Source of the DNA: an uncultured Gammaproteobacteria bacterium
GTDB lineage: Bacteria > Patescibacteriota > Patescibacteriia > Patescibacteriales > GWC2-42-12
Assembly (NCBI GenBank): GCA_964431805.1
Contig: CAYSKV010000001.1
Location: 61,698-125,697, forward strand
Direction: 5' to 3'
Length of the DNA: 64,000 nucleotides
Position 1 is the stretch's first letter, and every line of letters starts with the position of its first letter. Position numbers and translations under genes: made by a program. Under the pieces are notes generated by a model that saw nothing but the letters and a program-made list of their open reading frames with translations, ran no database searches and was not told where the DNA came from. Positions 1,642 through 64,000 of this stretch are shown in pieces.

Positions 1642-1660
1642 AAAATAAAAGCCAATAAAT
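1632..1660. repeat. Left copy of a 29-bp perfect inverted repeat (GACGAAATAAAAAATAAAAGCCAATAAAT)
   Basis: Exact reverse complement of 2109-2137. Overlaps the last codons and stop of mreB. Confidence 0.9.
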
Positions 1661-1662
1661 AT

Positions 1663-2109
1663 ATGGAATTTAAAACTGTTTTTTTTACAGTTCTTTCAGG
1701 TGTATTGGTATATATTATCGGTCAAATCATTAATAAATTTTATATTGAACCTATACAAAGGCAAAAAGAAACTATAGGTAAAATATCAGATGCTTTAATT
1801 TATTATTCTAATTTATATACCTCACCAAAAATCTCAGCAACCCAAGAGTTTGATAGGCCTGAAAAACGAGAAAAAGCACATGAAGATTTCAGAAATTTAG
1901 CTTGCGAGCTAGTGTCCAGAACGCATCAAATACCGCATTATATATATTTATCATATTTAAAAATCGTACCAAAAGAAAAAATTATAATCATATCCAGAGG
2001 AAACTTGATTGGTCTGTCAAATGGTATGTGGCCAAGTTATGAAAGCATGCAACATAATATAAAATTTCAAAAAGAGCTTGAAACAAATTTAGATTTGCTT
2101 ACTGAATAA
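1663..2109 (+). CDS. Hypothetical membrane-anchored protein (148 aa)
   Basis: Intact ORF with one N-terminal hydrophobic helix (VFFTVLSGVLVYIIGQII). No family recognised. Bracketed by the 29-bp inverted repeat. Confidence 0.6.
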   Translation: MEFKTVFFTVLSGVLVYIIGQIINKFYIEPIQRQKETIGKISDALIYYSNLYTSPKISATQEFDRPEKREKAHEDFRNLACELVSRTHQIPHYIYLSYLKIVPKEKIIIISRGNLIGLSNGMWPSYESMQHNIKFQKELETNLDLLTE

Positions 2110-2137
2110 TTTATTGGCTTTTATTTTTTATTTCGTC
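2109..2137. repeat. Right copy of the 29-bp perfect inverted repeat (ATTTATTGGCTTTTATTTTTTATTTCGTC)
   Basis: Exact reverse complement of 1632-1660. Starts at the last base of the ORF's stop codon and abuts the GC hairpin repeat. Confidence 0.9.
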
Positions 2138-2167
2138 ATTCCGGCCTCCGAGCCGGAATCTAGGGGT
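2135..2167. repeat. GC-rich hairpin repeat GTCATTCCGGCCTCCGAGCCGGAATCTAGGGGT (left bracket of the R-M cassette)
   Basis: 8-bp stem ATTCCGGC/GCCGGAAT. Near-identical copy in inverted orientation at 4300-4331. Confidence 0.85.
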
Positions 2168-2254
2168 AAATAGAAAAATAGGTGTTTTTTCGCGGAGTTT
2201 ACCCCACTGAATAGCAGGGGTACAAAAATGATTTAATTAATTTTTAAAATACTT

Positions 2255-2962
2255 ATGCCGTATCTAAAATTTATATCCGACAAAAATTTAATTTCTGCCG
2301 TTGGAAAAGTAGTCAAAATAATAGAAATGACGGAACGTGAGGCGAGTAGTAATCTTCATAAAAATGTTATTGATCCTTTTTCAGCCTTGTTCCATGGCGT
2401 CACTCATTCAATAGCATACAAAGAATGGATAAAACAAGAAAAGGCCAGACAATCACAAAAAACAATGCAAAATGCCATAGGTGATTTTCATCAAGAAATA
2501 TTAGGTGCAATCCCTGGTTGGAAAAATCTCGGAGTTGGTGGAGGGTTGGATGTTGCAAACGATAAAATGAAAATTATTGCAGAAATAAAAAATAAATTTA
2601 ATACAACAAAAGGAAATCATAAGGTTGAAATATATAATGCCATAGAGTCAAAACTTAAATCAGAAAAATTTAATGGTTTTATTGGATATTATGTAGAAAT
2701 AATACCTCAGGCAAAAAGCATATACAACAAACCCTTTACCCCATCGGACAATAAGACCCACAAGAGAAAACCGAGCAAAAAAAATATCAGAGTAATTGAT
2801 GGTATAAGTTTTTATACTCTTGCAACCGGACGAAAATATGCCCTACAGGAACTATTTGAAGCGTTATCTCATATTTTAGTAGATGAATACAAATTTAAAT
2901 TAAGCAAAGAAGAAGCTAAAAAATATTTTGAATTATTTAAATTAGCCTTTTTAACTAAATAA
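2255..2962 (+). CDS. Putative type II restriction endonuclease (PD-(D/E)XK-like)
   Basis: 235-aa ORF directly upstream of a C5-methyltransferase. Candidate catalytic motif GLDV..(10 aa)..AEIKNK. Size and the NVIDPFSA region recall Eco47II-type enzymes from memory only (unverified). Confidence 0.55.
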   Translation: MPYLKFISDKNLISAVGKVVKIIEMTEREASSNLHKNVIDPFSALFHGVTHSIAYKEWIKQEKARQSQKTMQNAIGDFHQEILGAIPGWKNLGVGGGLDVANDKMKIIAEIKNKFNTTKGNHKVEIYNAIESKLKSEKFNGFIGYYVEIIPQAKSIYNKPFTPSDNKTHKRKPSKKNIRVIDGISFYTLATGRKYALQELFEALSHILVDEYKFKLSKEEAKKYFELFKLAFLTK

Positions 2963-2980
2963 CCATTGCCTAGGCAATGG
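2963..2980 (+). terminator. Perfect palindrome CCATTGCC-TA-GGCAATGG followed by TTATTT, between the R and M genes
   Basis: 8-bp GC-containing stem immediately after the stop codon, with a U-rich tail. Confidence 0.5.
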
Positions 2981-2985
2981 TTATT

Positions 2986-2994
2986 TGATATAAT
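2986..2994 (+). promoter_or_regulatory. Extended -10 promoter TGATATAAT for the methyltransferase gene
   Basis: TGnTATAAT match 29 nt upstream of ATG 3023. The same TGnTATAAT form recurs at other gene starts in this window. Confidence 0.5.
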
Positions 2995-2997
2995 TAT

Positions 2998-3016
2998 GAT
3001 AGATTATTAATCTATC
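2998..3016. promoter_or_regulatory. 19-bp perfect palindrome GATAGATTA-T-TAATCTATC (candidate operator)
   Basis: 9+1+9 perfect dyad lying between the -10 box and the start codon of the HTH-methyltransferase. Confidence 0.5.
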
Positions 3017-3022
3017 TTTTTT

Positions 3023-4276
3023 ATGAAAAAAAATCAATTTATAACCGCTGGAGAAGCCGCCCGTCGATTAGGTATTTCAATTGATACTATTAGAAGGTGG
3101 GACAAAAAAGGACTAATTAAATCTTTTAGAGATGAAAAAAACGATCGCATATTTAGTTTAGAAGAAATAAAAAGAATACAAAACAAAACTTACGGAGACA
3201 AAAAAAGTAAGTTTAAAATTTTAAAGAATAATAGAATGTCAAACTACACAGCGATCGAATTATTCGCTGGTGCGGGGGGCACTGCTTTAGGGATGGAAAA
3301 TGCAGGTATTGAGCATGTACTATTGAATGAGTATGACAAATATGCCTGCGAAACACTTCGGATTAATAAACCAAATTGGAATGTTGTCGAAAAAGATATA
3401 AGAGAACTAAAATTTTTTAATGGGCAAGCCGACATTGTTCAAGGAGGTTTTCCCTGCCAAACTTTTTCGCAAGCTGGTCGAAAAATGGGTTTTGAGGATA
3501 TACGAGGTACATTGTTTTTTGAGTTTGCGAGATGTGTTAAAGAAGTTAAGCCTAAAATTGCAATTGGAGAAAATGTCAAAGGATTGCTCAACCATGACAA
3601 TGGTAGAACAATTAAGACGATGGTGTCTGTTTTAGAAGAAATTGGATATCGAGTTAAATATAAAATTTTACGATCACAATATTTGGATGTTCCGCAAAAA
3701 AGAGAACGTCTTATAATTATTGGGGTTAGAAAAGATTTAAATATTCCTATTTCATTTCCAAAAGAAAAAGATTATATTATTCCTCTGCGCGAAGCATTCA
3801 GCAAATGTCCAAAATCTGAAGGCCAAAAATATCCAGAAAAAAAGAAAAAAATATTAGAATTAATTCCTCCTGGCGGATATTGGAGAGATCTTCCGGAAAA
3901 TCTTCAAAAAGAATACATGGGGGCAAGTTATTTCATGGGTGGCGGCAAAACTGGTATGGCAAGAAGATTGTCGTGGGACGAACCGTCTTTAACCTTGACT
4001 TGTAGCCCGGCTCAAAAACAAACTGAACGTTGTCATCCAAATGAAACACGTCCTTTGTCAGTGCGCGAATATGCACGAATTCAAACATTTCCAGATAGTT
4101 GGAAATTTTCAGGATCCGTTTCGCAGCAGTATAAACAAATAGGTAATGCTGTACCGGTAAACCTTGGATATCACATTGGCGACATGATAATTAAAATGCT
4201 TAACGGTGAAATTGAAGAAGAAAAAGATGAGGCGCTTATGTTTATTCAGCAAAAATTATTTGCTTTTGCTACGTAA
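3023..4276 (+). CDS. dcm: DNA (cytosine-5)-methyltransferase with N-terminal MerR/excisionase-type HTH domain
   Basis: C5-MTase motifs: I ELFAGAGG, IV GGFPCQTFS, VI GENVKGL, VIII QKRERLIIIG, X GNAVPV. The first ~70 aa carry ITAGEAARRLGISIDTIRRWDKKGLI, in the same frame with no intervening stop. Confidence 0.9.
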   Translation: MKKNQFITAGEAARRLGISIDTIRRWDKKGLIKSFRDEKNDRIFSLEEIKRIQNKTYGDKKSKFKILKNNRMSNYTAIELFAGAGGTALGMENAGIEHVLLNEYDKYACETLRINKPNWNVVEKDIRELKFFNGQADIVQGGFPCQTFSQAGRKMGFEDIRGTLFFEFARCVKEVKPKIAIGENVKGLLNHDNGRTIKTMVSVLEEIGYRVKYKILRSQYLDVPQKRERLIIIGVRKDLNIPISFPKEKDYIIPLREAFSKCPKSEGQKYPEKKKKILELIPPGGYWRDLPENLQKEYMGASYFMGGGKTGMARRLSWDEPSLTLTCSPAQKQTERCHPNETRPLSVREYARIQTFPDSWKFSGSVSQQYKQIGNAVPVNLGYHIGDMIIKMLNGEIEEEKDEALMFIQQKLFAFAT

Positions 4277-4299
4277 TAAAATTTTGACTTTAAGTATTC

Positions 4300-4331
4300 A
4301 CCCCTAGATTCCGGGTCAAGCCCGGAATGAC
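4300..4331. repeat. GC-rich hairpin repeat ACCCCTAGATTCCGGGTCAAGCCCGGAATGAC (right bracket, inverted)
   Basis: Its reverse complement GTCATTCCGGGCTTGACCCGGAATCTAGGGGT matches 2135-2167 except in the loop. Confidence 0.85.
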
Positions 4332-4356
4332 AAAAAAGATAATAATAATTTAATTT

Positions 4357-5658: not shown

Positions 5659-5759
5659 ACCCCGTTAAATAGCATCTTTATTCATAAATGGGGTAAGTTT
5701 TGCATTTGTATTTTTTTGTAAATTATTTATGATAAATTTTTTGTTTAGATTTAACGGGG
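5659..5759 (+). promoter_or_regulatory. Leader hairpin: ACCCCGTTAAAT (5659-5670) pairs with ATTTAACGGGG (5749-5759), enclosing the start codon at 5729
   Basis: 11-bp perfect complementarity. The 5' arm sits 13 nt after the -10 box. The same motif pair occurs at 55245-55345 and 59572-59629. Confidence 0.55.
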
Positions 5760-8056
5760 CGAGAAAGAAAACGACATCTTTTTTTAATATTTTTTTAATT
5801 GGAATAATTACGTTCCTAAGTTTTTTTATTTTTACTAATAGTAAGGCTTTTAGCGATACTAATAATGATTTTGCTTGCCCAGTTAAATCACAATTAGATA
5901 TTGGGGAGCGTAGTGTATTTAACAGGGTCGCCGATGAAATATTAGTAAAATTTAAAAATTCATCAAATCCGATAACTATAAAAATCGCTCAAGCGGGGGA
6001 TTTAAATGAGTTTTTAAATTACTATAATAATTTATCGGAAGTAGATTACGCCGAACCAAATTACATTTACAAAGCTTCTATAATTCCGTCTGATACGCTT
6101 TTTAATAATCAATGGTATTTACAAAAAATTAAAGCTGTTGAAGCATGGGATAATACAAGAGAAAGTTCTAATATTGTTATTGCTATTTTAGATTCAGGCG
6201 TGCAAATAAATCACCCCGATCTCGCTAGTAATATTTGGGTGAATAAAAAAGAGGTCGCTAATAATGGCATTGATGATGATAGAAATGGTTTTATTGATGA
6301 CGTTAATGGTTGGGATTTTGTTAATAATGTGCCTGACCCGGCGCCAAAATTTAAAACTGGATTTACTGAAGATGGAATTTTACATGGCACTATTATCGCC
6401 GGTATTGCGGCGGCTTCTGGCAATAACGCGGCTGGCATCGCTGGTATAACTTGGAAAGCGAAAATTATGCCGCTTAAAGTTTTAGATGATAAAGGCGATG
6501 GCAGCGCTTCAAAGGTTATAAAAGCCATTGATTACGCCATTGCTAATGGCGCCAATATTATTAATTTAAGTTTTGTTGGTTTTGGTTATAGTAAAGGTTT
6601 AGACGACGCGGTTAAACGCGCTTATGACGCTGGTTTAATCGTAGTAGCCGCCGGAGGCAACGAAGTCGGCCAGGGCGATGGTTATTATCTAGATGAAACT
6701 CCAATGTATCCAGCTTGCTTAGACGGCGCTAGTGGCGAAAATAGAGTAATCGGCGTAGCCGCAACCGATACCATGGATCAAAAAGCGACTTTTTCCAGTT
6801 TTGGCATTAAATGCATTGATATTGCCGCGCCAGGAGTTAGCGTTTTTAGCACAGTAGTTTATTCGCCGGATAATTATATAGGCGATCAACCATTTAATAA
6901 ATATTATGATGGTTATTGGTCTGGCACATCCGTCGCCGTGCCTATGGTAAGCGGCGCTTTAGCGTTAATCGAAGGCGCTAATCCAGCTTTAAATCGAGAA
7001 GAAATTTTAAAAGCCTTATTAGATAATGCTGATAATATTAGTCGAGTAAATCCAAATTATTTAGGTAAGCTTGGCAAAGGCAGATTAAATGTGGCTTCGT
7101 CGATTAATTACGCTAAAAGCATATTAAATAGTAAAATTGAAAAATTATTAATCGGTCCGAAAAGTGGCATGGCGAGTTTAGTAAAAATTACTGATCAAGA
7201 CGGAAAAAAGGATAACGAATTTTATGCTTATGGCGCTAGCTTTAAGGGCGGGGTTAATTTTTCTTCCGGAGATATAAATGGCGACGGCCAAGATGAAATT
7301 ATTACTGCGGCTGGTTTAGGCGGCGGACCGCACATTAGAATTTTTGACACTAAAGGAAAATTAGTGAGCCAGTTTTTTGCCTTTAGCAACACTTTCCGCG
7401 GCGGCGTGAATATTGCCAGCGCCGATATAAACAATGACGGTAAAGATGAAATTATCGCGGCTCAAGCTTCGGCAGGCAATTCAGAAATAAAAATTTTTAA
7501 TAATAAAGGGGGATTTTTAGGTTCATTTTACGCCTATGATAAATTTAAAGGCGGTATAAATATAGCTGCCGGCGATATTAATGGCGACGGGGAAGACGAA
7601 ATTATTACAGGTTTATCTGCTGGAAAAATTCCTGAAATAAAAATTTTTAATTCTAGCGGAGCTTTACGCGGTCAATTTTTGGCTTACGTTAAAACTTTTA
7701 CTGGCGGCGTAAGGGTAGCCGTAGCTAATGTTAGAAATTCTTCCGGTAGCCATAAATCAGATATTATTACGGCTCCGGAAAAAGGCGGCGGTCCGCATAT
7801 AAAAGTTTTTGATAGCAAAGGAAATTTATTTTCTCAATTTTTTGCTTTTAGCAGTACTTTTCGCGGTGGAGTTAATTTAGCTAAAGCCGACGTTGATAAT
7901 GACGGTTTTGACGAAATAATAACCGGCGCCGGTTCGGGAGGCGCGCCGCATGTCCGTGTTTTTAAAGCTAGCGGAAAACTTACTGGTTCATTTTACGCTT
8001 ATGAAGATAATTTTAGCGGAGGCGTTAGTGTTGGTAGCATAAAAATTAATAAATAA
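5729..8056 (+). CDS. Secreted subtilisin-like (S8) serine protease with C-terminal FG-GAP/VCBS-type repeats
   Basis: Catalytic contexts AILDSGV (Asp), HGTIIAG (His), GTSVAVPMVSG (Ser). N-terminal hydrophobic anchor. 6-7 repeats of GGVNxxxGDINGDGxDEIIT in the last ~300 aa. Confidence 0.9.
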   Translation: MINFLFRFNGARKKTTSFFNIFLIGIITFLSFFIFTNSKAFSDTNNDFACPVKSQLDIGERSVFNRVADEILVKFKNSSNPITIKIAQAGDLNEFLNYYNNLSEVDYAEPNYIYKASIIPSDTLFNNQWYLQKIKAVEAWDNTRESSNIVIAILDSGVQINHPDLASNIWVNKKEVANNGIDDDRNGFIDDVNGWDFVNNVPDPAPKFKTGFTEDGILHGTIIAGIAAASGNNAAGIAGITWKAKIMPLKVLDDKGDGSASKVIKAIDYAIANGANIINLSFVGFGYSKGLDDAVKRAYDAGLIVVAAGGNEVGQGDGYYLDETPMYPACLDGASGENRVIGVAATDTMDQKATFSSFGIKCIDIAAPGVSVFSTVVYSPDNYIGDQPFNKYYDGYWSGTSVAVPMVSGALALIEGANPALNREEILKALLDNADNISRVNPNYLGKLGKGRLNVASSINYAKSILNSKIEKLLIGPKSGMASLVKITDQDGKKDNEFYAYGASFKGGVNFSSGDINGDGQDEIITAAGLGGGPHIRIFDTKGKLVSQFFAFSNTFRGGVNIASADINNDGKDEIIAAQASAGNSEIKIFNNKGGFLGSFYAYDKFKGGINIAAGDINGDGEDEIITGLSAGKIPEIKIFNSSGALRGQFLAYVKTFTGGVRVAVANVRNSSGSHKSDIITAPEKGGGPHIKVFDSKGNLFSQFFAFSSTFRGGVNLAKADVDNDGFDEIITGAGSGGAPHVRVFKASGKLTGSFYAYEDNFSGGVSVGSIKINK

Positions 8057-8198
8057 CCTTTAAAAACTTTTTTAGAAAAAGTTTTTAATATTTTCAAAAA
8101 ATATAAAGTATCAAATAAAAATTTTATAGCGAGTAAAACTCTACGGCCATAAAATTTTAATTCGATAAATAATAAACTAATAAAATATTTATAATTAT
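8057..8198 (+). repeat. Two-hairpin intergenic module, copy A
   Basis: Hairpin 1: TTAAAAACTTTTT-TAG-AAAAAGTTTTTAA (8060-8088). Hairpin 2: 8109-8167 with loop AGCGAGTAAAACTCTACGGCC. Fills the whole spacer between stop and next start. Confidence 0.9.
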
Positions 8199-9212
8199 AT
8201 GAGCAAAAGAGCAATTTTTGACAAAAAAAATGTTTTAGTAATCGGCGGCGCTGGTTTCGTCGGTTCGCATTTATGCGACCGGCTAATTGAAAATAGCAAA
8301 GTAATTTGCCTTGATAATTTTTCAACCGGCGACGAAAGAAATATTGATCATTTACTTTCTGATCCTAATTTTGAGTTTATAAAACATGATATGGTTGAGC
8401 CGATTAATTTAGAAGCCTTGCCGGAATTGCAAAAATTTAAAATAGAATTTCAGGGTATCCAAGAAATTTATAATTTAGCTTGCCCGACCTCGCCGAAAGA
8501 TTTTGAAAAAAATAAAATCGCAACGGTTTTAGCTTCTTCTTATGCCGTAAAAAATGCTTTGGATTTAGCGGTTCGTTACCAGGCAAAAATTATGCATTTT
8601 TCTTCTTCGGTAGTTTACGGCCCAAGATTAGACGGCCAAACAAAAATTAAGGAAAGCGAAATTGGTAAAGTTGATTTTCTTTCTGAGAGAAGTTGCTACG
8701 ACGAAGGCAAAAGATTTTCCGAAACTATGGTAGAAAATTATCGCCGCGTTTATAATCTTGACGCGAAAGTGGCTCGCTTATTTAGAATTTATGGACCGAG
8801 GCTAAAACTAAACGAAGGCAATTTAATTCCTGATTTTATAAATAGCGCTTTGGAAAATTCTGATTTAACTATTCTTGGCGACGAAAATTTTTCTAGTTCG
8901 CTTTGTTATGTCAGCGATTGTGTTGATGCTTGTTTAAAATTAATGGAAAGTTCAGCAAATGGGCCGTTTAATATTGGATCTGATGTTGATATGAATTTAA
9001 CAAAAATTTGCGAGATGATTATTAAAATTTTAGATTCAAAATCGGCTATAACATATGCGGACAAACATTTATTTATTAGTGAATTATGTTTGCCTGACAT
9101 AACTAGAGCTAAGGAAGAGCTGGGTTGGATGCCGATTGTTACTTTGGAAAATGGTTTGAAAAAGACAATTGATGATTTACGAGCGAGCAAAGGTTTAAAA
9201 ACGGTAGTATAG
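8199..9212 (+). CDS. UDP-glucuronate decarboxylase-like NAD-dependent epimerase/dehydratase
   Basis: Rossmann motif VIGGAGFVGSHLCDRL, LACPTSP, and the catalytic YDEGKR block typical of UXS-type SDR enzymes. Confidence 0.8.
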   Translation: MSKRAIFDKKNVLVIGGAGFVGSHLCDRLIENSKVICLDNFSTGDERNIDHLLSDPNFEFIKHDMVEPINLEALPELQKFKIEFQGIQEIYNLACPTSPKDFEKNKIATVLASSYAVKNALDLAVRYQAKIMHFSSSVVYGPRLDGQTKIKESEIGKVDFLSERSCYDEGKRFSETMVENYRRVYNLDAKVARLFRIYGPRLKLNEGNLIPDFINSALENSDLTILGDENFSSSLCYVSDCVDACLKLMESSANGPFNIGSDVDMNLTKICEMIIKILDSKSAITYADKHLFISELCLPDITRAKEELGWMPIVTLENGLKKTIDDLRASKGLKTVV

Positions 9213-9338
9213 CCTTTAAAAACCTTTTTAAAAAAGGTTTTTAATATTTTCCAAAATATAAGGTATCAAATAAAAATTTTAAAGCGAGCGAAGCTCTACG
9301 GCCATAAATTTTTTTATTTGATTATTATAAGTTAATTT
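9213..9338 (+). repeat. Two-hairpin intergenic module, copy B
   Basis: Hairpin 1: TAAAAACCTTTTT-AAA-AAAAAGGTTTTTA (an extra C:G pair). Hairpin 2: ~9263-9323 with loop AGCGAGCGAAGCTCTACGGCC. Confidence 0.9.
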
Positions 9339-10007
9339 ATGAAAATTTTTTGCGTCATTCCGGCGTTTAATGAAGAAAAAAATATAGCAACGGTTATAGA
9401 CCAGGTAAAACCCCTGGTTGATACGGTTGTAGTGGTGGACGATAGTTCAAGCGATCAAACGGCTAGTTCTTCGGCTAAAACCGGCGTGGTTTTACTTAAG
9501 CATATAATAAATCGCGGGCAGGGCGCAGCTTTAAGAACGGGTACCGAGTATTGTTTAAAAAATGACGCTGATATAGTCGTTCATTTTGACGCCGACGGCC
9601 AATTTTTAAGTAAGGATATAGAAAAAGTTGTCGCGCCAATTAAAAATGGCGAGGCGCAAGTTGTTTTCGGCTCGCGTTTTTTAGATAGCGCTCATAGTTC
9701 GGAAATGCCGATATTTAAGAAATATTTTATTATGCCTTTAGCTAAAGCGGTAAATAAAATATTTTTTAATATTAATTTAACCGATCCACAAAGCGGTTTT
9801 AGAGCGATGTCGAGCGAGGCGGCGCGTAAAATTAATTGGCGACAAGACCGGATGGCGCATTGCTCGGAAATAATGTTTGAAGTTAAAAAAAATAATTTTA
9901 AAGTTAAAGAAATACCTATAAGAGTTATTTACCATAGTTTCGGACAAAGTTTTTCTGGCGGGTTAAAAATTTTAAAAGAATTATTTATTGCCATGCTGGT
10001 TAATTAA
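9339..10007 (+). CDS. Glycosyltransferase family 2 (polyprenol-phosphate sugar transferase-like)
   Basis: VIPAFNEEKNI, VVVDDSSSD, HFDADGQ (DxD) motifs; 222 aa. Confidence 0.85.
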   Translation: MKIFCVIPAFNEEKNIATVIDQVKPLVDTVVVVDDSSSDQTASSSAKTGVVLLKHIINRGQGAALRTGTEYCLKNDADIVVHFDADGQFLSKDIEKVVAPIKNGEAQVVFGSRFLDSAHSSEMPIFKKYFIMPLAKAVNKIFFNINLTDPQSGFRAMSSEAARKINWRQDRMAHCSEIMFEVKKNNFKVKEIPIRVIYHSFGQSFSGGLKILKELFIAMLVN

Positions 10008-10024
10008 AATATTATATTAACAAT

Positions 10025-10351
10025 ATGTTACAACAAACAATCGCTTTAATTATTATCGCTTTTATACTCGCTCGGCTTTTTCGGCAAAAGCAAAAGAATT
10101 ATATTAGCATGAATGAATTTTTATTTTGGCTTATTTTTTGGATTTTAGCCGCATGTCTAATAATTTCTTTAAAATTTATTGATGAATTAGTAGCCGGACT
10201 CGGTTTTAGCGGTTCAGGTATTGAAGTTTTACTATATTTAAGCGTAGCTATATTATTTTATTTTGTTTTTCGTTTAAGGTTAAAATTAGAAAAAATTGAA
10301 AAAGATATTACTAAAGTTGTGCAAAATATAGCTGTAAAAAATGGTAAATAA
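10025..10351 (+). CDS. Small membrane protein, DUF2304-like
   Basis: 108 aa with 3 predicted hydrophobic helices, immediately after a GT2 gene, which is the usual DUF2304 context. Family call is from memory. Confidence 0.55.
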   Translation: MLQQTIALIIIAFILARLFRQKQKNYISMNEFLFWLIFWILAACLIISLKFIDELVAGLGFSGSGIEVLLYLSVAILFYFVFRLRLKLEKIEKDITKVVQNIAVKNGK

Positions 10352-10485
10352 ACCTTTAAAAACTTTTTTAGAAAAAGTTTTCCCCTAAAGGGATAAATAA
10401 TATTTTCAAAAATATAAGGTATTAAGTAAAAATTTCATAGCGAGCAAAGCTCTACGGCTATAAAATTTTTACTTAATTATGATAA
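10352..10485 (+). repeat. Two-hairpin intergenic module, copy C (with extra CCCT-AA-AGGG mini-hairpin)
   Basis: Hairpin 1 as in copy A. Hairpin 2 at ~10419-10478 has an altered but still complementary stem (TTAAGTAAAAATTT / AAATTTTTACTTAA) and loop AGCGAGCAAAGCTCTACGGCT. Confidence 0.9.
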
Positions 10486-10494
10486 TTGATTATT

Positions 10495-11661
10495 ATGAAA
10501 ATTGCTCAAATAGTCTGTACTTTTCCGCCATACCGAGGCGGTATTGGTAATAGCGTTTATAATATTTCGGAAAGCTTGGCTGATTCAGGCCATGATGTAA
10601 CAGTTTTTACTCCAAATTATAATTATAAAATTGAAGAAGAGTTTAATTTACATGAAGGCAAATTTAAAGTTGAGCGCCTAAAGCCATTATTTAAATATGG
10701 CAATGCCGCTTTTATACCCCAGCTTTTATGGAAATTAAAAAACTTTGATATTATTCATTTGCATTACCCATTTTATGGTGCGCTTCAACCAGTGCTATTA
10801 AGAAAATTATTACTGGGGCGTAAAATGAGATTAATTTTGCATTATCATATGGATTCGAGGGCCGCTGGATTTAGGGGTGCTGTTTTTTATTTATATAATA
10901 TTTTAGTTTTACCAATTTTAGTTAGAGCGGCTACGATTATTACTTGCGCTTCGCTTGATTATGTAAAACATTCTGACTTAAGAGAATATTATTTAACTAA
11001 ACCGAAAAAATTTAGGCAAATATCATTTGGAGTAAACCTTGAACAATTTGTTACTTATCATGATGATTTAAATAAAAAACGAGAAAATAAAATTATTTTA
11101 TTTGTTGGCGCTTTAGATAAAGCCCATTATTTTAAAGGTTTAGAAAATTTACTTGAAGCTTTAGCTATAATTATTAAAGACCAGAAATTAAATGCGACTA
11201 TTTTAAAAGTGGTTGGACGGGGAAATTTATTATCTTATTATCAAAATTGCGTACTTAAATTAGGCTTAGGAAAAAATGTTAAATTTTATGAGCATGTTGA
11301 TGATAGCAAATTAGTTGATTTTTATAATTATTCTGATTGTTTAGTTTTACCGTCAATAAATAAAGGCGAAGCTTTTGGCTTAGTTTTACTTGAAGCTATG
11401 GCTTGCTCAAGGCCAGTTATAACTTCAAATTTGCCTGGCGTTAGAAGCGTTTTTAAAAGCGGCAGAGAAGGTTTGTTGGTTAAACCAAACGATATTAATG
11501 ATTTAGCCAATAAAATAAAAACTATTTTAAATGATAAAAAATTAGCCGAAAAAATGGGGTTAGCCGGCAGGGCGCTTGTAGAAAAAAAATATACTTGGTT
11601 TAAAGTTAGTAAAAGATTAGAATTTATTTATCATTATGTTAAATACACTTTTAAGCCATAA
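10495..11661 (+). CDS. Glycosyltransferase family 1
   Basis: GEAFGLVLLEAMACSRPVITSN E-x7-E region. ATG 10495 is preferred to TTG 10486. Confidence 0.85.
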   Translation: MKIAQIVCTFPPYRGGIGNSVYNISESLADSGHDVTVFTPNYNYKIEEEFNLHEGKFKVERLKPLFKYGNAAFIPQLLWKLKNFDIIHLHYPFYGALQPVLLRKLLLGRKMRLILHYHMDSRAAGFRGAVFYLYNILVLPILVRAATIITCASLDYVKHSDLREYYLTKPKKFRQISFGVNLEQFVTYHDDLNKKRENKIILFVGALDKAHYFKGLENLLEALAIIIKDQKLNATILKVVGRGNLLSYYQNCVLKLGLGKNVKFYEHVDDSKLVDFYNYSDCLVLPSINKGEAFGLVLLEAMACSRPVITSNLPGVRSVFKSGREGLLVKPNDINDLANKIKTILNDKKLAEKMGLAGRALVEKKYTWFKVSKRLEFIYHYVKYTFKP

Positions 11662-22056: not shown

Positions 22057-22203
22057 AGCCTTTGAAAACTTTTTCAAAAAAAGTTTTCAATACTTTCCCC
22101 GCCTAAGCGGGATAAACAAAAAATATAACGTATCAAATTAAAATTTAATGGCCGTAGAGTTCTACTCGCTATTAAATTTTAATTTGATTATAATAAATAT
22201 TAT
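22057..22203 (+). repeat. Two-hairpin intergenic module, copy D (loop of hairpin 2 inverted; extra CCCGC-CTAA-GCGGG mini-hairpin)
   Basis: Hairpin 1: TTGAAAACTTTTT / AAAAAGTTTTCAA. The hairpin 2 (22130-22189) loop ATGGCCGTAGAGTTCTACTCGCTAT is the exact reverse complement of the copy E loop. Confidence 0.9.
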
Positions 22204-31464: not shown

Positions 31465-31493
31465 TTGACAGCTACATAAATAAACTATATAAT
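31465..31493 (+). promoter_or_regulatory. Consensus sigma-70-type promoter TTGACA-17 nt-TATAAT
   Basis: TTGACA 31465-31470 and TATAAT 31488-31493, upstream of the infA / ribosomal protein cluster. Confidence 0.7.
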
Positions 31494-31588
31494 TATTTTA
31501 CAGTAAATAAACAGTAAATAAAGTTTTGGCATCTCGCCTAGGGCGAGTAATTTTTTGCCAAAGCTATTTTTGTTTTAAAACGTATTTA

Positions 31589-31828
31589 ATGCAAGAACAA
31601 AGCAACAAAACAATTAGTTCCAAAGATTTTATTGAAATGCAGGGCGAGGTAGTAGAATTAATGCCGGCCGCCAGTTTTAAAGTTATGCTGGAAAACGGCC
31701 ATGAGATTTTAACGCATCTTTCCGGTAAAATGAGAATGAATAAAATTAGACTTTTGCCAGGAGATAAAGTTAAAGTTCAAATCAGCCCTTACGATTTAAC
31801 TAAAGGCAGAATAACTTACAGGCTCTAA
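31589..31828 (+). CDS. infA: Translation initiation factor IF-1
   Basis: S1-like OB sequence [67 protein letters not shown] 31589 is preferred to the TTG-extended ORF start 31526. Confidence 0.9.
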
Positions 31829-31955
31829 AAAGCTTTAAAGACTTTTTCAAAAAAAGTTTTTAATATTTTCAAAAATATAACGTATCAATTTAAAATTTAA
31901 TAGCGAGTAGAACTCTACGGCCATTAAATTTTAAATTGATACAATAAAGATAATT
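31829..31955 (+). repeat. Two-hairpin intergenic module, copy E
   Basis: Hairpin 1: TTAAAGACTTTTT / AAAAAGTTTTTAA. Hairpin 2 (31882-31942) has a perfect 20-bp stem GTATCAATTTAAAATTTAAT and loop AGCGAGTAGAACTCTACGGCC. Confidence 0.9.
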
Positions 31956-34901: not shown

Positions 34902-34927
34902 AGTCCTTAAAAACTTTTAAAAATACT

Positions 34928-50774: not shown

Positions 50775-50842
50775 TTTGTCTATTAATATTTTGCGACACA
50801 TAGACTTATACAACATCCATAATTATAAAAAAGGCGTTTATG

Positions 50843-50851
50843 TGCTATAAT
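50843..50851 (+). promoter_or_regulatory. Extended -10 promoter TGCTATAAT
   Basis: TGnTATAAT match about 150 nt upstream of the small ORF at 51005. Confidence 0.4.
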
Positions 50852-50933
50852 GTAAAATAGAGTTAAGAGAGGTAGTAAATATCTAAAATTTTTAGACTAG
50901 CAACAAGAAAATAAATTTATTTTGAATAAACCC

Positions 50934-50990
50934 ACTAAAATTTAAATCAAAAAAGGTATATACATACCAATGAACGGTTTAAATTTTAGT
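50934..50990 (+). promoter_or_regulatory. Nested leader structure upstream of the 49-aa ORF
   Basis: 13-bp perfect stem ACTAAAATTTAAA / TTTAAATTTTAGT enclosing GGTAT-ATAC-ATACC. It ends 14 nt before ATG 51005. Confidence 0.5.
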
Positions 50991-51004
50991 CCGTAAATAA
51001 CCTT

Positions 51005-51154
51005 ATGCAAGGAATTTTTAAAACATTGTTTGTTTTGGGAGTAATAGTATTTTGTATAGTAGTTATTGCTTTATTTTTGCTTTTATTAAAACTTATACTA
51101 TTATTTAATCCAGAAATAAACATCTTCGGCATGTTAATCCAACCAATGCAATAA
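51005..51154 (+). CDS. Small hydrophobic peptide (49 aa), type-I-toxin-like
   Basis: Hand translation: MQGIFKTLFVLGVIVFCIVVIALFLLLLKLILLFNPEINIFGMLIQPMQ. Followed by a terminator. Below the ORF-track cut-off. Confidence 0.45.
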   Translation: MQGIFKTLFVLGVIVFCIVVIALFLLLLKLILLFNPEINIFGMLIQPMQ

Positions 51155-51178
51155 AGTTTTACTTCAAAATACTACCCA

Positions 51179-51217
51179 AGCGTCGCATAAGTTATATTGT
51201 GCGACGCTATTATATTT
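51179..51217 (+). terminator. Rho-independent terminator (plus strand)
   Basis: AGCGTCGCA (51179-51187) pairs with TGCGACGCT (51200-51208), followed by an A/T-rich tail. Confidence 0.65.
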
Positions 51218-51242
51218 AAAAAGTATAGTGTTAGCTATACTT
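51217..51242 (-). terminator. Rho-independent terminator (minus strand) of the SprT-like/NERD operon
   Basis: Minus strand reads AGTATAG-CTAACA-CTATACT followed by TTTTT. It lies back-to-back with the plus-strand terminator. Confidence 0.6.
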
Positions 51243-51270
51243 CTCTATCAACTTATAACGTTACTAAACT

Positions 51271-51378
51271 TTATTTCTCATTTAATATATCTAAAGCTTT
51301 CTTATAAAATGGTTTAGATATTTTTTGCGCCTTAGATGATGAGATTCTGTTAAAATAATATTTTAATCTTTTTATCAT
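51271..51378 (-). CDS. Possible 35-aa basic mini-protein
   Basis: Hand translation: MIKRLKYYFNRISSSKAQKISKPFYKKALDILNEK. GAGGGGAG lies 10 nt upstream of the ATG. It starts 20 nt after the NERD stop. Confidence 0.3.
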   Translation of the reverse strand: MIKRLKYYFNRISSSKAQKISKPFYKKALDILNEK

Positions 51379-51398
51379 TTCTTTGCTTCTCCCCTCTT

Positions 51399-55270: not shown

Positions 55271-55364
55271 AATTTTAAACCCGCTAAATAACATATGTGG
55301 ACTATTACTATTTTAACTAATTAAATTAGTAATTATTTAACGGGGTGAATAATATTATTATAAC
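55245..55364 (-). promoter_or_regulatory. TGTTATAAT promoter plus leader hairpin ACCCCGTTAAAT / ATTTAATGGGGT enclosing the M23 start codon
   Basis: On the minus strand the -10 box is at 55356-55364, the 5' arm at 55334-55345, and the 3' arm at 55245-55256 inside codons KFNGV. One G:U pair; 77-nt loop. Confidence 0.5.
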
Positions 55365-59571: not shown

Positions 59572-59629
59572 ACCCCGTTAAATAGTGTTTAGCGCTAATT
59601 TTGTTAAAAACAAAATTATTTAACAGGGG
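59572..59629 (-). promoter_or_regulatory. Leader hairpin ACCCCGTTAAATA / TATTTAACAGGGG with inner 9-bp hairpin, upstream of the GT26-Nudix gene
   Basis: Arms at 59572-59584 and 59617-59629. Inner hairpin AATTTTGTT-AAA-AACAAAATT at 59597-59617. Putative -10 TATTAT (minus strand) at 59638-59643. Confidence 0.5.
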
Positions 59630-60925: not shown

Positions 60926-63900
60926 TTATTTCGCGCACCTAAAACCAATATTAGTTGATTGTTCGCTTGGCGAATGAGATAAATCAAGACCGTAAATTCC
61001 GGTCGAGCCGCGAACAAAAGCTTTTAAACCCGATGTTGAGCCAACATAAATTTTTCCTATATTATTATCTACGTCAGTTAAATAATAATCCGGCGCTATA
61101 TCTAAACCTTTATAATCGGATACATCGCTATATTCAAACCAATTATCTGCTAGCGGCGTTACCGGCAACCCAGCCACGGTTACATTTTTATTAGTCCACT
61201 CACCTACCTCACCCACTAAATTGTTAATTAAGTTATCATTGTTTAATTTGTAAGATATGGAAGTGGTGGCGAGTTGCATGCCAGCAATATTGGTATCGCT
61301 ATCATTGTCAGGATTTTGCAAAATATTTTCAGCGATAGTTAACCATTCATTTTCACCAATTAAGTGATAACCCGTGCCTAGAGTTTGGCAAGCGATTTGA
61401 GCTTCGCCCTGAGAGATATTAGTTTTGATTTGGTCTAATTCATCTTTCATTAAATCTGCTTGGACGCAGAAACCAGGCAAGGTGCCATATTTAGCTGAGC
61501 CAGGCACCCAGACAAAACCGTCTTCGCAATAACCCTCGAAAGCTCCGGCCACAACTTTGCCTTCAACGCCTAAATCAGCCATGGTTTCATCAACCGCTGA
61601 GTCTAGGGCGTTAGAGCAATAACCGCCGGCGCAGAGCATAATACGACCGTCAACTAACATTGAGCCTGCGACTTTAACTTCACCGCTTTGAGCTATATTC
61701 ATAATAGAGACGCCGTTAGCTTGAAAATCTGCGATATCGCCTGAACCTGATTGATTAACTATGAATGCGGTTTTAGTTGAGGAAGCGGTTATTTCGGTTA
61801 GTTCAACAATCTTAACTTCTGGCTCTTGGCCTGGTTCTGAGACTGAATCTTTACCGATTATGATGCTGCCGTTTTCATCAAACGACATTATATTCTCACC
61901 ATTCTGGTTTTGTAAAAATAGAGCTTGTGGAGTAATACCGCTGGCGGCTTCGGTAAAGCGGAAATTGTTGGCAAAAATTAAATCACCGACGTAGGAGTTA
62001 GTGGCGTGCAGAGTGCCTAAAACATCTAAATTACTGGCGATGGTTGAAGTACCGGTTCCGCCGACTTCGAGGAGGCCTGAGATATAGGCTGAATTATATT
62101 TATCGCCAGCGAGTAGATAGACCGGGGTGCTTGAACCAACCGTCAGAAGAGCTTGAGGAGAAGTTGTGCCGATGCCGACGTTGCCGCCTGCTTGAAAGGT
62201 GGTAACAACATCAGTAATATCAACATTATTATTATCATCCGCATTATCATTAAGAATATACATATCGCCTCGACCCCGAGTATTATCAGTTCGTTTAAAT
62301 GCAATTCCAGCCTTTGAATAATTAGCGCCTCCTCCCGTACCAAGATAACCCAACATTAAACCAGTCCATTGATTTTGCGTAATGTCTCCACCAATATGAG
62401 CCGCAAAAGAGTTGCCTGAAGTTGCCACAGTCAATTTATTTAATGGGGTCGTAATTCCGATGCCGACGTTAGTATTTTTTACTGTCAAAGTATCAGTAAA
62501 AGTGTTAGTCCCGGTTGGCGTAGCCAATGTTATTCTGGCTGATTGATAATTATTACTATCAAAAGTAGAATAGATGCGACCGCTATTATAAATTGTTCCT
62601 GGCCCGTTTGAAAGTTCACCCATAAAAACTATATCTTCTTGGGTAGATGCAGATCCTGATTTTTGCAAAGTTAAAAGGTTTTGCGCATTTGCCGTTCCAA
62701 TGCCTACATTACCATTTGCCAACACAGTCATTAAAGTTGAAGTTGATGTACCAGCCGTTGTTGAAGCTATAGTGAATAGAGGCGTGTTAACTGCTGTTGA
62801 TACAGAATTAGAAATAGATAACATAGAATAAGGCGAAGTCGTACCAACGCCCAATCTACCAGCTATAGCTGTATTAGGAATTGCCGAGTCATCAATAGTC
62901 AAAGCTGTACCCATTGTAGTTCTTAAATTTATTCCGGTCCAACCAAATAAATTTAAACCCGTCCCATTAGGACTGCTATTATTTATTTCTGCAAATGTCC
63001 CCATATCTATTTTATTGGCTGTAATAGTGCTTATAGATAATCCGCCTGTCATATGAACAGTGCCATCCCAAGTCATATACATAGATGCATTATTGCCAAA
63101 TGAATTGTCAAATCTAAAAATATCTTGACCGGCATTACCTGTTGGCGTGGTAACATAAAATTTAGCCGTAGGATTGGCAGCTCCAATTCCCACATTCCCA
63201 TTATTCGTTACCATTAAATATGTTGATGTCGCCACGCCGGCGGTTGAAGAAGCAATTATAAATAATGGAGTAGACCCGCCCAAAGTATTTTCTATTGATA
63301 ATTTTGCGTAAGGAGAAGAGGTGCCAATACCGACGTTGCCGTTAGTTAAAATAGAAATTCTTTCATTACCAGCGCCAGAAGCAGAGTCAAAGATGGATAA
63401 TCTTCCGTCATCAGAATTTTTGATAGACCAGGTTGAAGTGCCGATGTTTAGCGTACCGAACCAACCTTCGTTCCAACGATAAGTAGAAGTGCCGATGTTA
63501 TAGGTTAAATTAGCGCTTGGTAGAATATCTCCAGAAACTAATAATCCAGAACTAGTAATTGTTCCGGTAGCGGTTAGATTACCGGCAATATAGGCATCGC
63601 CGATTACAGATAGTTTAGTAAATGGTGAAGTTGTGCCGATGCCGACGTTGCCGCCTGCTTGAAAGGTGGTAACAACATCAGTAATATCAACATTATTATT
63701 ATCATCCGCATTATCATTAAGAATATACATATCGCCTCGACCCCGAGTATTATCAGTTCGTTTAAATGCAATTCCAGCCTTTGAATAATTAGCGCCTCCT
63801 CCCGTACCAAGATAACCCAACATTAAACCAGTCCATTGATTTTGCGTAATGTCTCCACCAATATGAGCCGCAAAAGAGTTGCCTGAAGTTGCCACAGTCA

Positions 63901-64000
63901 ATTTATTTAATGGGGTCGTAATTCCGATGCCGACGTTAGTATTTTTTACTGTCAAAGTATCAGTAAAAGTGTTAGTCCCGGTTGGCGTAGCCAATGTTAT
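60926..64000 (-). CDS. Giant repeat-rich surface protein (tail-fibre-like GNVGIGTxSP repeats) with C-terminal C-type-lectin/FGE-sulfatase-like domain; 5' end outside window
   Basis: The frame is open to the window edge, so the TTG start in the ORF track is an artefact. Recurrent NVGIGTTSPxxKLxV units. The C-terminal ~200 aa carry FVWVPG, GYHLIGENEW, VGEWTN and GFRCAK followed by the stop. Confidence 0.85.
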   Translation of the reverse strand: MTLATPTGTNTFTDTLTVKNTNVGIGITTPLNKLTVATSGNSFAAHIGGDITQNQWTGLMLGYLGTGGGANYSKAGIAFKRTDNTRGRGDMYILNDNADDNNNVDITDVVTTFQAGGNVGIGTTSPFTKLSVIGDAYIAGNLTATGTITSSGLLVSGDILPSANLTYNIGTSTYRWNEGWFGTLNIGTSTWSIKNSDDGRLSIFDSASGAGNERISILTNGNVGIGTSSPYAKLSIENTLGGSTPLFIIASSTAGVATSTYLMVTNNGNVGIGAANPTAKFYVTTPTGNAGQDIFRFDNSFGNNASMYMTWDGTVHMTGGLSISTITANKIDMGTFAEINNSSPNGTGLNLFGWTGINLRTTMGTALTIDDSAIPNTAIAGRLGVGTTSPYSMLSISNSVSTAVNTPLFTIASTTAGTSTSTLMTVLANGNVGIGTANAQNLLTLQKSGSASTQEDIVFMGELSNGPGTIYNSGRIYSTFDSNNYQSARITLATPTGTNTFTDTLTVKNTNVGIGITTPLNKLTVATSGNSFAAHIGGDITQNQWTGLMLGYLGTGGGANYSKAGIAFKRTDNTRGRGDMYILNDNADDNNNVDITDVVTTFQAGGNVGIGTTSPQALLTVGSSTPVYLLAGDKYNSAYISGLLEVGGTGTSTIASNLDVLGTLHATNSYVGDLIFANNFRFTEAASGITPQALFLQNQNGENIMSFDENGSIIIGKDSVSEPGQEPEVKIVELTEITASSTKTAFIVNQSGSGDIADFQANGVSIMNIAQSGEVKVAGSMLVDGRIMLCAGGYCSNALDSAVDETMADLGVEGKVVAGAFEGYCEDGFVWVPGSAKYGTLPGFCVQADLMKDELDQIKTNISQGEAQIACQTLGTGYHLIGENEWLTIAENILQNPDNDSDTNIAGMQLATTSISYKLNNDNLINNLVGEVGEWTNKNVTVAGLPVTPLADNWFEYSDVSDYKGLDIAPDYYLTDVDNNIGKIYVGSTSGLKAFVRGSTGIYGLDLSHSPSEQSTNIGFRCAK
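62160..62533. repeat. Perfect direct repeat, copy 1 (inside the giant gene)
   Basis: Identical base for base, as far as I compared, to 63627-64000. The offset of 1467 bp (489 codons) is in frame. Confidence 0.9.
63627..64000. repeat. Perfect direct repeat, copy 2 (truncated by the window edge)
   Basis: See 62160-62533. Identity continues to the last base of the window. Confidence 0.9.

Follow-up and report, generated by a model that had tools for sequence, protein, structure and literature searches.

A two-hairpin repeat with turnover between stop and start codons in Parcubacteria

What occupies the spacers ahead of five unrelated genes in a 64-kb stretch of DNA from an uncultured bacterium (contig CAYSKV010000001.1; hereafter the window, whose positions serve as coordinates throughout), and does it act as DNA or as RNA? 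A preliminary description of this stretch had noted five stop-to-start spacers that each hold a module of two hairpins, and had offered as candidate roles a terminator plus a structured 5' leader or processing site, or a small palindromic mobile element. Here we report that the module is a dispersed, structured repeat with turnover in a clade of Parcubacteria, where it lies between the stop codon of one gene and the start codon of the next, mostly in sense orientation. With modest confidence, we read the five spacers as copies of a non-autonomous dispersed repeat that acts as an intercistronic RNA hairpin cassette.

Anatomy of the module and conservation of its pairing

A covariance model (CM) of the module, R1, was run on both strands of the window with filters off and found exactly five copies, A to E, at the five loci described earlier (78-110 bits; Table 1). 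The remaining matches of at least 26 bits were minus-strand echoes of these five palindromes, and the best match elsewhere (2943-3035) scored 22.0 bits. The core pattern AGCGAG-N5-CTCTACGGC matched five times in the window against 0.36 expected, and matches to the hairpin 1 pattern were limited to the same five loci, with 0 expected. The genome is ~33% GC and its spacers are AT-rich, which could produce chance likeness among low-complexity intergenic DNA. That explanation is refuted by these counts, by CM scores of 78-110 bits against at most 22 for unrelated sequence, and by more than 150 further copies outside the window.

The conserved unit, ~110 nt long, begins at CCTTT and ends at the base of hairpin 2. 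Hairpin 1 (H1) is a 13-bp, nearly pure A-U stem with a 3-nt loop, and is followed by an invariant AT-rich spacer (AATAYTTTCAAAAAATATAA, also given as AATAYTTTCAAAAA(A)TATAAN). Hairpin 2 (H2) is a 17-20-bp A-T stem around a 21-nt core, AGCGAG-N5-CTCTACGGCC, whose apex reads AGCG, a 4-bp apical stem with a triloop, then CYACKGCC. Copies begin near the upstream stop codon, as had been described, but the conserved element stops at the base of H2 rather than at the next start codon, and the AT-rich tail from there to the ATG (13-32 nt in the window) is separate. In copy A, this tail equals in length and position the ancestral 31-nt spacer of a relative (L077; Lnnn labels denote retrieved relative or metagenome loci). 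Copy C had been taken to end at a TTG at 10486 and in fact runs on to an ATG at 10495.

Individual copies depart from this plan in several ways. The C:G pair described as added to H1 of copy B is a U-A to C-G substitution, and the right arm of H2 in this copy is imperfect. The core of copy C has a final T that turns an A.C position into A-U. A conserved core had been reported for the module; it has one orientation in A, B, C and E, while the core of copy D is reverse-complemented relative to the other four inside the same palindromic stem, with H1 and the spacer remaining on the plus strand. Consistent with this arrangement, the minus strand of copy D scores 57.7 bits over CM positions 54-110. 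Extra GC hairpins, often with ATAAA after them, occur in the H1 loop, at the H1/spacer junction, in mid-spacer and at the H2 apex, and never inside a stem. The extra GC mini-hairpins reported for copies C and D are both present, at different positions: inserts like that of copy C occur at the same junction in L064, L067, L077, L084, L100 and L102, and inserts like that of copy D at the same point in L064, L067, L071, L076, L088, L094 and L108.

Two scans supplied copies from other genomes. An exact-pattern scan covered one genome per species with the core sequence fixed in the query, and a metagenome scan was anchored on the H1 3' arm and spacer, which left the core unbiased. In a 67-row alignment built with R1, 96.0% of the cells in paired columns were paired, compared with 86.7% after shuffling and 43-57% when partners were slid. 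Two-sided changes affected 30 of 44 pairs (11 +/- 1.6 in shuffles), and covarying pairs made up 7/13 in H1, 18/21 in the H2 stem and 3/4 in the mini-stem. The compensatory stem changes first noticed among five copies are thus genuine. A second test, separate from this alignment, anchored the H2 arms on the core without gaps: among 113 distinct H2 sequences with 75 distinct left arms, 1866 of 1921 positions were Watson-Crick (97%). Furthermore, copy E folded at -35.4 kcal/mol against -12.2 +/- 2.9 for its shuffles (z = -8.0). A third, "spacer hairpin" (ATATTTT/AAAATAT) was considered and set aside; it was 89% paired, with 21 mismatches at one pair and 2 covarying pairs.

In the core-unbiased set, the mini-stem took the forms GAGC/GCTC, GAGT/ACTC, GGGC/GCCC, GGAC/GTCC, GAAC/GTTC, GGGT/ACCC and GGAT/ATCC, and was sometimes swapped for a longer GC hairpin. 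Around this varying mini-stem, AGCG and CTACGGCC were nearly invariant, the 3' flank reading C(Y)AC(K)GCC (motif CUACGGCC). The outer positions of the H2 stem were the most variable and its centre was conserved. What is preserved is therefore single-strand base pairing together with the unpaired bases that flank the apical stem, and this combination predicts a folded element recognised by a protein.

Turnover and distribution of the module

Comparison of the window with all retrieved loci by blastn gave syntenic relatives at 67-91% identity. Presence/absence and orientation polymorphism was found at sites A and C and in the infA/rpmJ, rpsM/rpsK and rplQ/rplM spacers, with relatives 72-91% identical in nucleotide sequence across these regions. 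Site A, filled in the window, is an empty 31-nt spacer in the syntenic L077, and site C, also filled in the window, is a 2-nt spacer there (TAA-AC-ATG); site B is filled in both (L077:6540-6672), before the same GT2 gene. The infA/rpmJ spacer is empty in L145, L094 and L210, carries the module on the plus strand in the window and L068, and holds the whole module inverted in L139 and L071. The rplQ/rplM spacer has a full module in L094 and L101 (and upstream of rplM in L210), an H1-deleted form in L081, an H2-less form in L145, and footprints of 7-26 nt in L071 and the window. The window footprint joins the H1 5' arm to the spacer A-run and is probably the deletion remnant of a sixth copy (Table 1). 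H2-less or H1-only forms also stand in place of full modules before rplV, rplC and an epimerase gene.

These comparisons also bear on how the module was first described. Its filling of entire spacers had been listed as part of its design, but empty ancestral sites measure 2-31 nt, and any insertion would fill them. Among the candidate roles, the small palindromic mobile element has the most direct evidence, since relatives' spacers are found empty, filled, inverted and partly deleted.

Copies are replaced as well as gained and lost. The ortholog of copy D in L172 belongs to a different subfamily and has its core in the usual orientation, which makes the core flip in copy D a recent one; L120 is the only other core flip among ~150 copies. 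Copies showed no grouping by genome: their mean identity was 0.905 within a genome and 0.893 across genomes, and 43 of 54 copies had their nearest neighbour in another genome. In two species, non-orthologous copies were 93-100% identical whereas syntenic coding DNA (the flanking DNA of EF-Tu and ribosomal-protein operons) was 84.6% identical. Together, these data demonstrate that sites acquire the module, and that it is inverted, partly lost or replaced, over the time in which species diverge.

The distribution of the module family beyond the window genome had escaped the preliminary description. The core motif was found at 48 loci in 15 species-level metagenome-assembled genomes (MAGs) labelled as Patescibacteria or Parcubacteria, and a genome usually had several; the scan with H1 and spacer gave at least 120 loci, and R1 gave ~62 copies in 421 kb (window plus genome loci). 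The module is specific to a clade of Parcubacteria (Patescibacteria/Candidate Phyla Radiation, CPR). Several module-bearing MAGs carry the title "uncultured Gammaproteobacteria" (L062, L065, L068, L072, L073, L075, L079, L081, L083, L089, L095-L097, L104 and L109). This label is probably wrong, because the ribosomal-protein operons of L068 and L081 are 78-84% identical to the Parcubacteria-like window. In one MAG, head-to-tail tandem modules of a divergent subtype (GTTCTTAATATTTC; core CTCTTCGGCC) occur at L097:1137-1366 and 2666-2778.

No match to any described RNA family emerged, in line with the preliminary description. Rfam 15 returned 0 matches at gathering thresholds over the whole window, and a permissive search with copy E returned only generic miRNA-precursor hairpins (10-25 bits, against gathering thresholds of 53-230). 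We found no description of the module in the literature on repeats, RNA motifs and translation start signals in Patescibacteria/CPR. As far as the searched libraries show, this is the first dispersed intergenic palindromic repeat described for CPR. A phage or plasmid origin was rejected: in phage and plasmid collections, all blastn matches were short, AT-rich and attributable to chance; the H1/spacer pattern matched two IMG/VR contigs, both rejected by the CM; a loose core pattern matched 61 times in IMG/VR, read as chance or coding sequence (e.g., a recurrent GGAGGGKS-encoding stretch); and the AT-rich phage contigs L001, L006, L028 and L056 reached just 23 bits with a different fold.

Orientation, gene context and rival explanations

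Orientation and context were counted for 94 modules of the core-unbiased metagenome set, among the matches listed. A same-strand ATG lies just past H2 in 77 of them (~82%), a same-strand stop codon lies within a few nt of CCTTT in 63, and 6 face a convergent gene; overall, about nine in ten copies are sense-oriented. In 79 of 102 cases the ATG follows the core end by 25-36 nt, which places it 6-15 nt from the stem base. This placement is compatible with the structured 5' leader or processing site proposed earlier (~82% sense, H2 ending ~6-15 nt before the ATG); the placement stands as observed, and the RNA role we infer from it. Highly expressed functions are strongly enriched among the downstream genes. 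These encode ribosomal proteins in at least 17 of 58 cases by Pfam families, or ~20 of 58 when L33, L10 and S18 are added from reading translations. Other recurrent downstream genes encode SSB, NDK, ATP synthase, enolase, NusG and pilins. Modules also lie in the 23S-5S spacer (L066, L085, L091), after 5S rRNA, after tRNA and before the leader of tuf, and up to six copies fall within 8 kb of one S10/spc operon (L089).

A terminator had been among the proposed roles. H1 is not supported as a canonical intrinsic terminator, which would combine a G+C-rich stem (at least 3 G-C pairs) with a U-tract straight after it: the H1 stem contains one or two G-C pairs, and a terminator scan of 7500-11000 does not call it. 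Module-bearing genomes use ordinary GC-rich terminators, at times immediately upstream of the module, and at least 12 modules stand directly between the T-tract of a canonical terminator and rpsL, rplJ, secE or rpsF. This order implies either that the module carries a promoter or that these operons rely on read-through. Elsewhere, the window genome has TTGACA/TGnTATAAT promoters. In the module, the last base of TATAAN is variable, and the would-be spacer of a promoter is a place of GC-hairpin insertion. A leaderless promoter with an extended -10 (TGATAnAAT) at the H2 boundary was also considered and rejected, because there is no TANNNT peak 5-8 nt from the ATG.

Several features of gene starts were noted alongside the module. 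The window genome is poor in Shine-Dalgarno (SD) motifs: ~5 of 59 starts have a GGAG/GAGG/AGGA-like motif, and the usual context is A/T-rich (...AAT ATG or ...ATT ATG). At 31466-31588, infA is preceded by a textbook TTGACA-17-TATAAT promoter, and its leader before the ATG at 31589 contains a hairpin, TTTTGGCA-TCTCGCCTAGGGCGAG-...-TGCCAAA. About 115 nt upstream of tuf, three genomes share a conserved structured leader, GACGGCTGGGAGCCCGNCC... (L067:4592-4640; L100, on the minus strand downstream of 3614; L065, on the minus strand near 5111); TATAAT precedes it at a constant 10 nt, and a module sits just upstream. In L078 (1160-1275) and L096 (3414-3528), a module follows the 5S rRNA 3' end and is followed by a DnaA-box-like TGTGGATAA / TGTGTATAA, which suggests that the end of the rRNA operon may adjoin the replication origin.

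A mechanism can be proposed from these observations. The module would land in the very short stop-to-start spacers of compact genomes and would then be carried on mRNAs and rRNA precursors; co-transcription is suggested because modules lie inside the S10, spc and alpha operons and the rRNA spacer. H1 would cap the 3' end of the upstream cistron. H2, a ~25-bp helix with a conserved 4-nt bulge, would stand ~10 nt before SD-less AUGs and may serve as a processing, stability or protein-binding site; its dimensions are compatible with an RNase III-type site (~22 bp or more). As the only DNA between canonical terminators and first operon genes, the module may also add promoter activity.

We favour an intercistronic RNA cassette because of the orientation of the copies, their spacing to the ATG and the enrichment of certain gene classes downstream. 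A number of results weigh against it. That the hairpins act in RNA rather than in DNA is itself a step that we infer from sequence. Many orthologous sites are empty or decayed, which implies that any function is dispensable at individual sites, and within operons ~8% of copies have the inverted orientation. In a long-lived sense-RNA helix, G.T pairs usually outnumber A.C pairs, whereas H2 stems have 6 G.T and 15 A.C on the sense strand, a difference that is not significant and does not favour that strand. The minus strand folds equally well (-35.0 kcal/mol for copy E). The alignment used for covariation had been fitted to the model, and its copies share descent. Neither a conserved sigma-70 -35/-10 pair in the module, nor a plus-strand promoter call common to copies A-C, nor a -10-like hexamer (TANNNT) at a fixed distance from the ATG was found. 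Terminal inverted repeats (TIRs) were not found either: the inverted repeats of the module are internal, one pair per hairpin, and its 5' end (CCTTTAAAAAC) and 3' end (...AACTTGAT) are not complementary. No target-site duplication (TSD) appeared between filled and empty forms of sites A and C (window versus L077) or of infA/rpmJ (7 genomes); the TA at both ends of H2 is part of the palindrome and hence ambiguous as a target duplication. Finally, tblastn of the window and all retrieved loci for a Y1 transposase gave nothing below E = 0.03 in ~1.2 Mb of module-bearing contigs, a weak test in that the RAYT and IS200 TnpA queries were approximate and the genomes are incomplete.

The main rival, which we consider rather unlikely, is a selfish element acting at the DNA level without RNA function, whose hairpins would be recognised in single-stranded DNA by a transposase or recombinase, as in REP/REPIN-RAYT or the IS200/IS605-derived PATEs. 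Such an element fits the gain, loss and inversion of copies at orthologous sites and their replacement by another subfamily, and likewise the lack of TIRs and TSDs, the equal folding of both strands, and stems that are nearly all Watson-Crick with no excess of sense-strand wobble pairs. Conserved unpaired bases beside a small hairpin, including GTAG on the minus strand, and the flips of the core within its arms (copy D, L120) point the same way. Its orientation bias would come from the replication strand, given that genes run with replication (genes and GC skew in the window are co-oriented), or from selection against the inverted form, which puts a U-tract (UUAUAUUUUUUG) after H2 and would terminate transcription. 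On the other side, the two hairpins are unrelated in sequence, unlike PATE ends, the 4-bp mini-stem is far below the size of a REP hairpin, the 5' junction has no conserved target tetranucleotide, and the tblastn search found no Y1 transposase, within the limits given above. Moreover, this explanation does not predict the tight start-codon spacing or the 5-6-fold enrichment before ribosomal-protein genes.

Those two properties, sense orientation with a fixed distance from H2 to the ATG and enrichment before genes for ribosomal proteins, ATP synthase, SSB, NDK, EF-Tu and pilins, would suit a host-encoded expression cassette, i.e., a portable combination of upstream-cistron end, promoter and 5' leader that is recruited before highly expressed genes, kept by purifying selection and dispersed by duplication or gene conversion. 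The module is conserved above flanking coding DNA, some sites are filled in several species (three genomes share the site before rpsG, and two that before the GT2 gene), and the terminator-module-first gene arrangements leave no other room for a promoter. We nevertheless find a host cassette unlikely. Neither a conserved -35/-10 pair nor a -10 at a fixed ATG distance was found, and the variable last base of TATAAN and the insertions in the would-be promoter spacer count against it as well. Promoters are not needed at the up to six copies in the S10/spc operon of L089 or at those in the 23S-5S spacer, genes only 2 nt apart in a relative carry the module here, and one and the same site can hold inverted or decayed copies. 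That the copies are small RNA genes, each transcribed on its own, is very improbable: strong structure, covariation and the lack of a known family would allow it, but copies abut stop and start codons with no room for their own promoter and terminator, lie inside ribosomal-protein operons and rRNA spacers, and are in several cases inverted or truncated.

The intercistronic RNA cassette could be extended further, and we raise this extension only as a tentative possibility: the module may be a portable RNA-level expression signal of SD-poor Parcubacteria. It would be a protein-recognised cassette, possibly with its own unconventional promoter, that cuts or insulates operon transcripts and offers the ribosome an unstructured A/U leader. 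Its spread into ribosomal-protein operons and rRNA spacers would have come from copying without TIRs or TSDs.

Features of the window and comparison with known systems

The genes downstream of the five copies had been named from their translations alone as unrelated, and Pfam agrees with those names; the neighbours are listed with the copies in Table 1, together with other features of the window.

Table 1. Copies of the module and further features of the 64-kb window, with their parts and the basis of each assignment.
Feature	Position	Strand	Description and basis
Copy A, conserved element	8057..8167	+	Sequence; CM 107.8 bits; S8 peptidase / epimerase
Copy A, parts			H1 8060-8088; spacer 8089-8107; H2 8109-8167; core AGCGAGTAAAACTCTACGGCC 8128-8148
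Copy A, AT-rich tail	8168-8198		Then ATG at 8199
Copy B	9213..9322	+	Sequence; CM 97.9 bits; tail up to ATG 9339; epimerase / GT2
Copy B, parts			H1 9216-9244, C-G pair in place of U-A; core 9283-9303
Copy C	10353..10477	+	Sequence; CM 91.0 bits; DUF2304 / GT1
Copy C, parts			H1 5' arm from 10356; H2 about 10420-10477; core 10439-10459
Copy C, GC mini-hairpin plus ATAAAT (CCCCTAAAGGGATAAAT)	10382..10398	+	Directly 3' of H1; alignments
Copy C, tail	10478-10494		Then ATG at 10495
Copy D	22059..22188	+	Sequence; CM 77.8 bits on +; tail up to ATG 22204; DUF4012 / DUF11 surface protein
Copy D, parts			H1 22062-22090 (G-type, TTGAAAAC/GTTTTCAA); H2 22132-22188
Copy D, GC mini-hairpin plus ATAAAC (CCCCGCCTAAGCGGGATAAAC)	22097..22117	+	Mid-spacer; alignments
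Copy D, inverted 21-nt core	22150..22170	-	+ strand reads GGCCGTAGAGTTCTACTCGCT; core pattern matches minus only
Copy E, infA/rpmJ spacer	31833..31942	+	Sequence; CM 110.2 bits; fold; tail up to ATG 31956; IF-1 / L36
Copy E, parts			H1 31835-31863 (one G.U pair); spacer 31864-31881; H2 31882-31942; core 31902-31922
Probable deletion remnant of a sixth copy, rplQ/rplM spacer	34902..34927 (26 nt)	+	AGTCCTTAAAAACTTTTAAAAATACT; alignment with relatives
Block between mreB and GT1 gene	1643-4356		Absent from syntenic L077
Small open reading frame in block	1663-2109		No assigned family
Eco47II-like restriction endonuclease	2255-2962		In block
C5 DNA methylase with MerR helix-turn-helix	3023-4276		In block
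Inverted repeats flanking block	2121-2172 / 4295-4345		
Perfect 29-nt pair flanking small open reading frame	1632-1660 / 2109-2137		
Short repeat ACCCCGTTAAATAG	5659-5672; 59572-59585		
Short repeat ACCCCGTTAAATAG	5915-5928; 55333-55346; 62436-62449; 63903-63916	-	
Switch of gene strand and GC-skew sign	about 50775-51398		Cumulative skew maximum; genes converge on 624-nt non-coding stretch

Three features of the window lie apart from the module. The block between mreB and the GT1 gene looks like a mobile restriction-modification island. A second short repeat, ACCCCGTTAAATAG, has 6 matches against 0.66 expected; at least 3 of these copies are intergenic and appear to pair with nearby GGGG-containing partners. 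The stretch where gene strand and GC-skew sign switch is probably the replication terminus region.

CPR/Patescibacteria genomes are streamlined (~1 Mb) and generally held to be poor in repeats and mobile DNA, and to our knowledge almost nothing is known of their promoters, RNA processing and SD-less initiation. The module is either a very successful parasite with hairpin-dependent spread or a shared expression signal, and on either reading it provides a concrete, testable way into the gene expression or genome dynamics of an uncultured radiation. It is a candidate family for Rfam or repeat libraries and a lineage marker, with potential for typing like REP- or ERIC-PCR. It may also help to explain MAG assembly problems, although modules at contig ends (11 of 49 against 7.8 expected) were not significantly enriched.

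By its behaviour, the module is a dispersed intergenic palindromic repeat, closest to ERIC, Correia/NEMIS, BOX and REP/BIME and a member of none of them. Several other classes were tried and rejected. Occupancy and orientation polymorphism is behaviour like that of a miniature inverted-repeat transposable element (MITE), but a classical MITE (Correia, RUP) has TIRs and a TSD, neither of which was found here, and a variable outer stem is the opposite of transposase-bound TIRs. An integron attC site was rejected because the centre of the module is conserved and its outer stem variable, and because its neighbours are core genes (ribosomal proteins, infA, rRNA). An IS200/IS605-derived PATE was rejected because H1 and H2 are unrelated and CCTTT is preceded by a stop codon plus 0-4 variable nt. 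Judged by sequence only, a K-turn, boxA/boxB nut-like elements, a sigma-54 or extracytoplasmic function (ECF) promoter, an IHF site and a 5S rRNA resemblance (GGCCGUAG) were each set aside because the motifs are not conserved across copies.

Like REP/BIME and REPIN-RAYT, the module consists of extragenic palindromes arranged as mosaics of optional parts, with covarying stems and conserved unpaired bases by a hairpin. REP hairpins, however, are GC-rich, 20-40 nt long, carry GTAG at the 5' foot and go with a RAYT gene, whereas the module has GTAG on the minus strand beside a 4-bp stem within a 19-bp A-T stem, and no RAYT was found (by the weak test described above). REP/REPIN membership was rejected on these grounds, as there is no 20-40-nt GC-rich palindrome, the long stem is A-T only and the small stem is 4 bp. 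Correia/NEMIS elements of Neisseria resemble the module in size (~100-150 bp), in their position near gene starts and in being co-transcribed, which for the module we consider probable; their mRNA hairpins are RNase III substrates, and they can supply promoters or terminators. They differ in having 26-bp TIRs, a TA target duplication and an IHF site, where the module has neither element-spanning TIRs nor a visible duplication.

The BOX elements of Streptococcus pneumoniae (boxA-boxB-boxC) are modular, with optional or repeated sub-modules, intergenic and stably folded, and they affect neighbouring expression. The module is likewise modular, intergenic and stably folded, but its sequences and module types are unrelated to those of BOX, which has no fixed relation to start codons. 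In placement, the module recalls the RNase III hairpins of phage T7, which are intercistronic, have a long helix with an asymmetric internal loop shortly before the next cistron and leave a 3' hairpin on the upstream RNA; this is a functional analogy only, as T7 sites are not mobile repeats. Putative mobile promoters share with it the occurrence of one upstream sequence before many unrelated, often highly expressed genes, but no recognisable sigma-70 promoter was identified in the module.

ERIC/IRU elements of Enterobacteria are ~127-bp imperfect palindromes in transcribed intergenic DNA, more conserved than flanking genes, variable in occupancy and with no known transposase. The module too is dispersed, intergenic and conserved in structure, above the level of flanking genes, with variable occupancy. 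The two do not resemble each other in sequence: ERIC is a single long palindrome that contains GC and occurs in either orientation, whereas the module comprises two separate hairpins joined by an invariant spacer, lies ~90% in sense orientation and ends ~10 nt before start codons.

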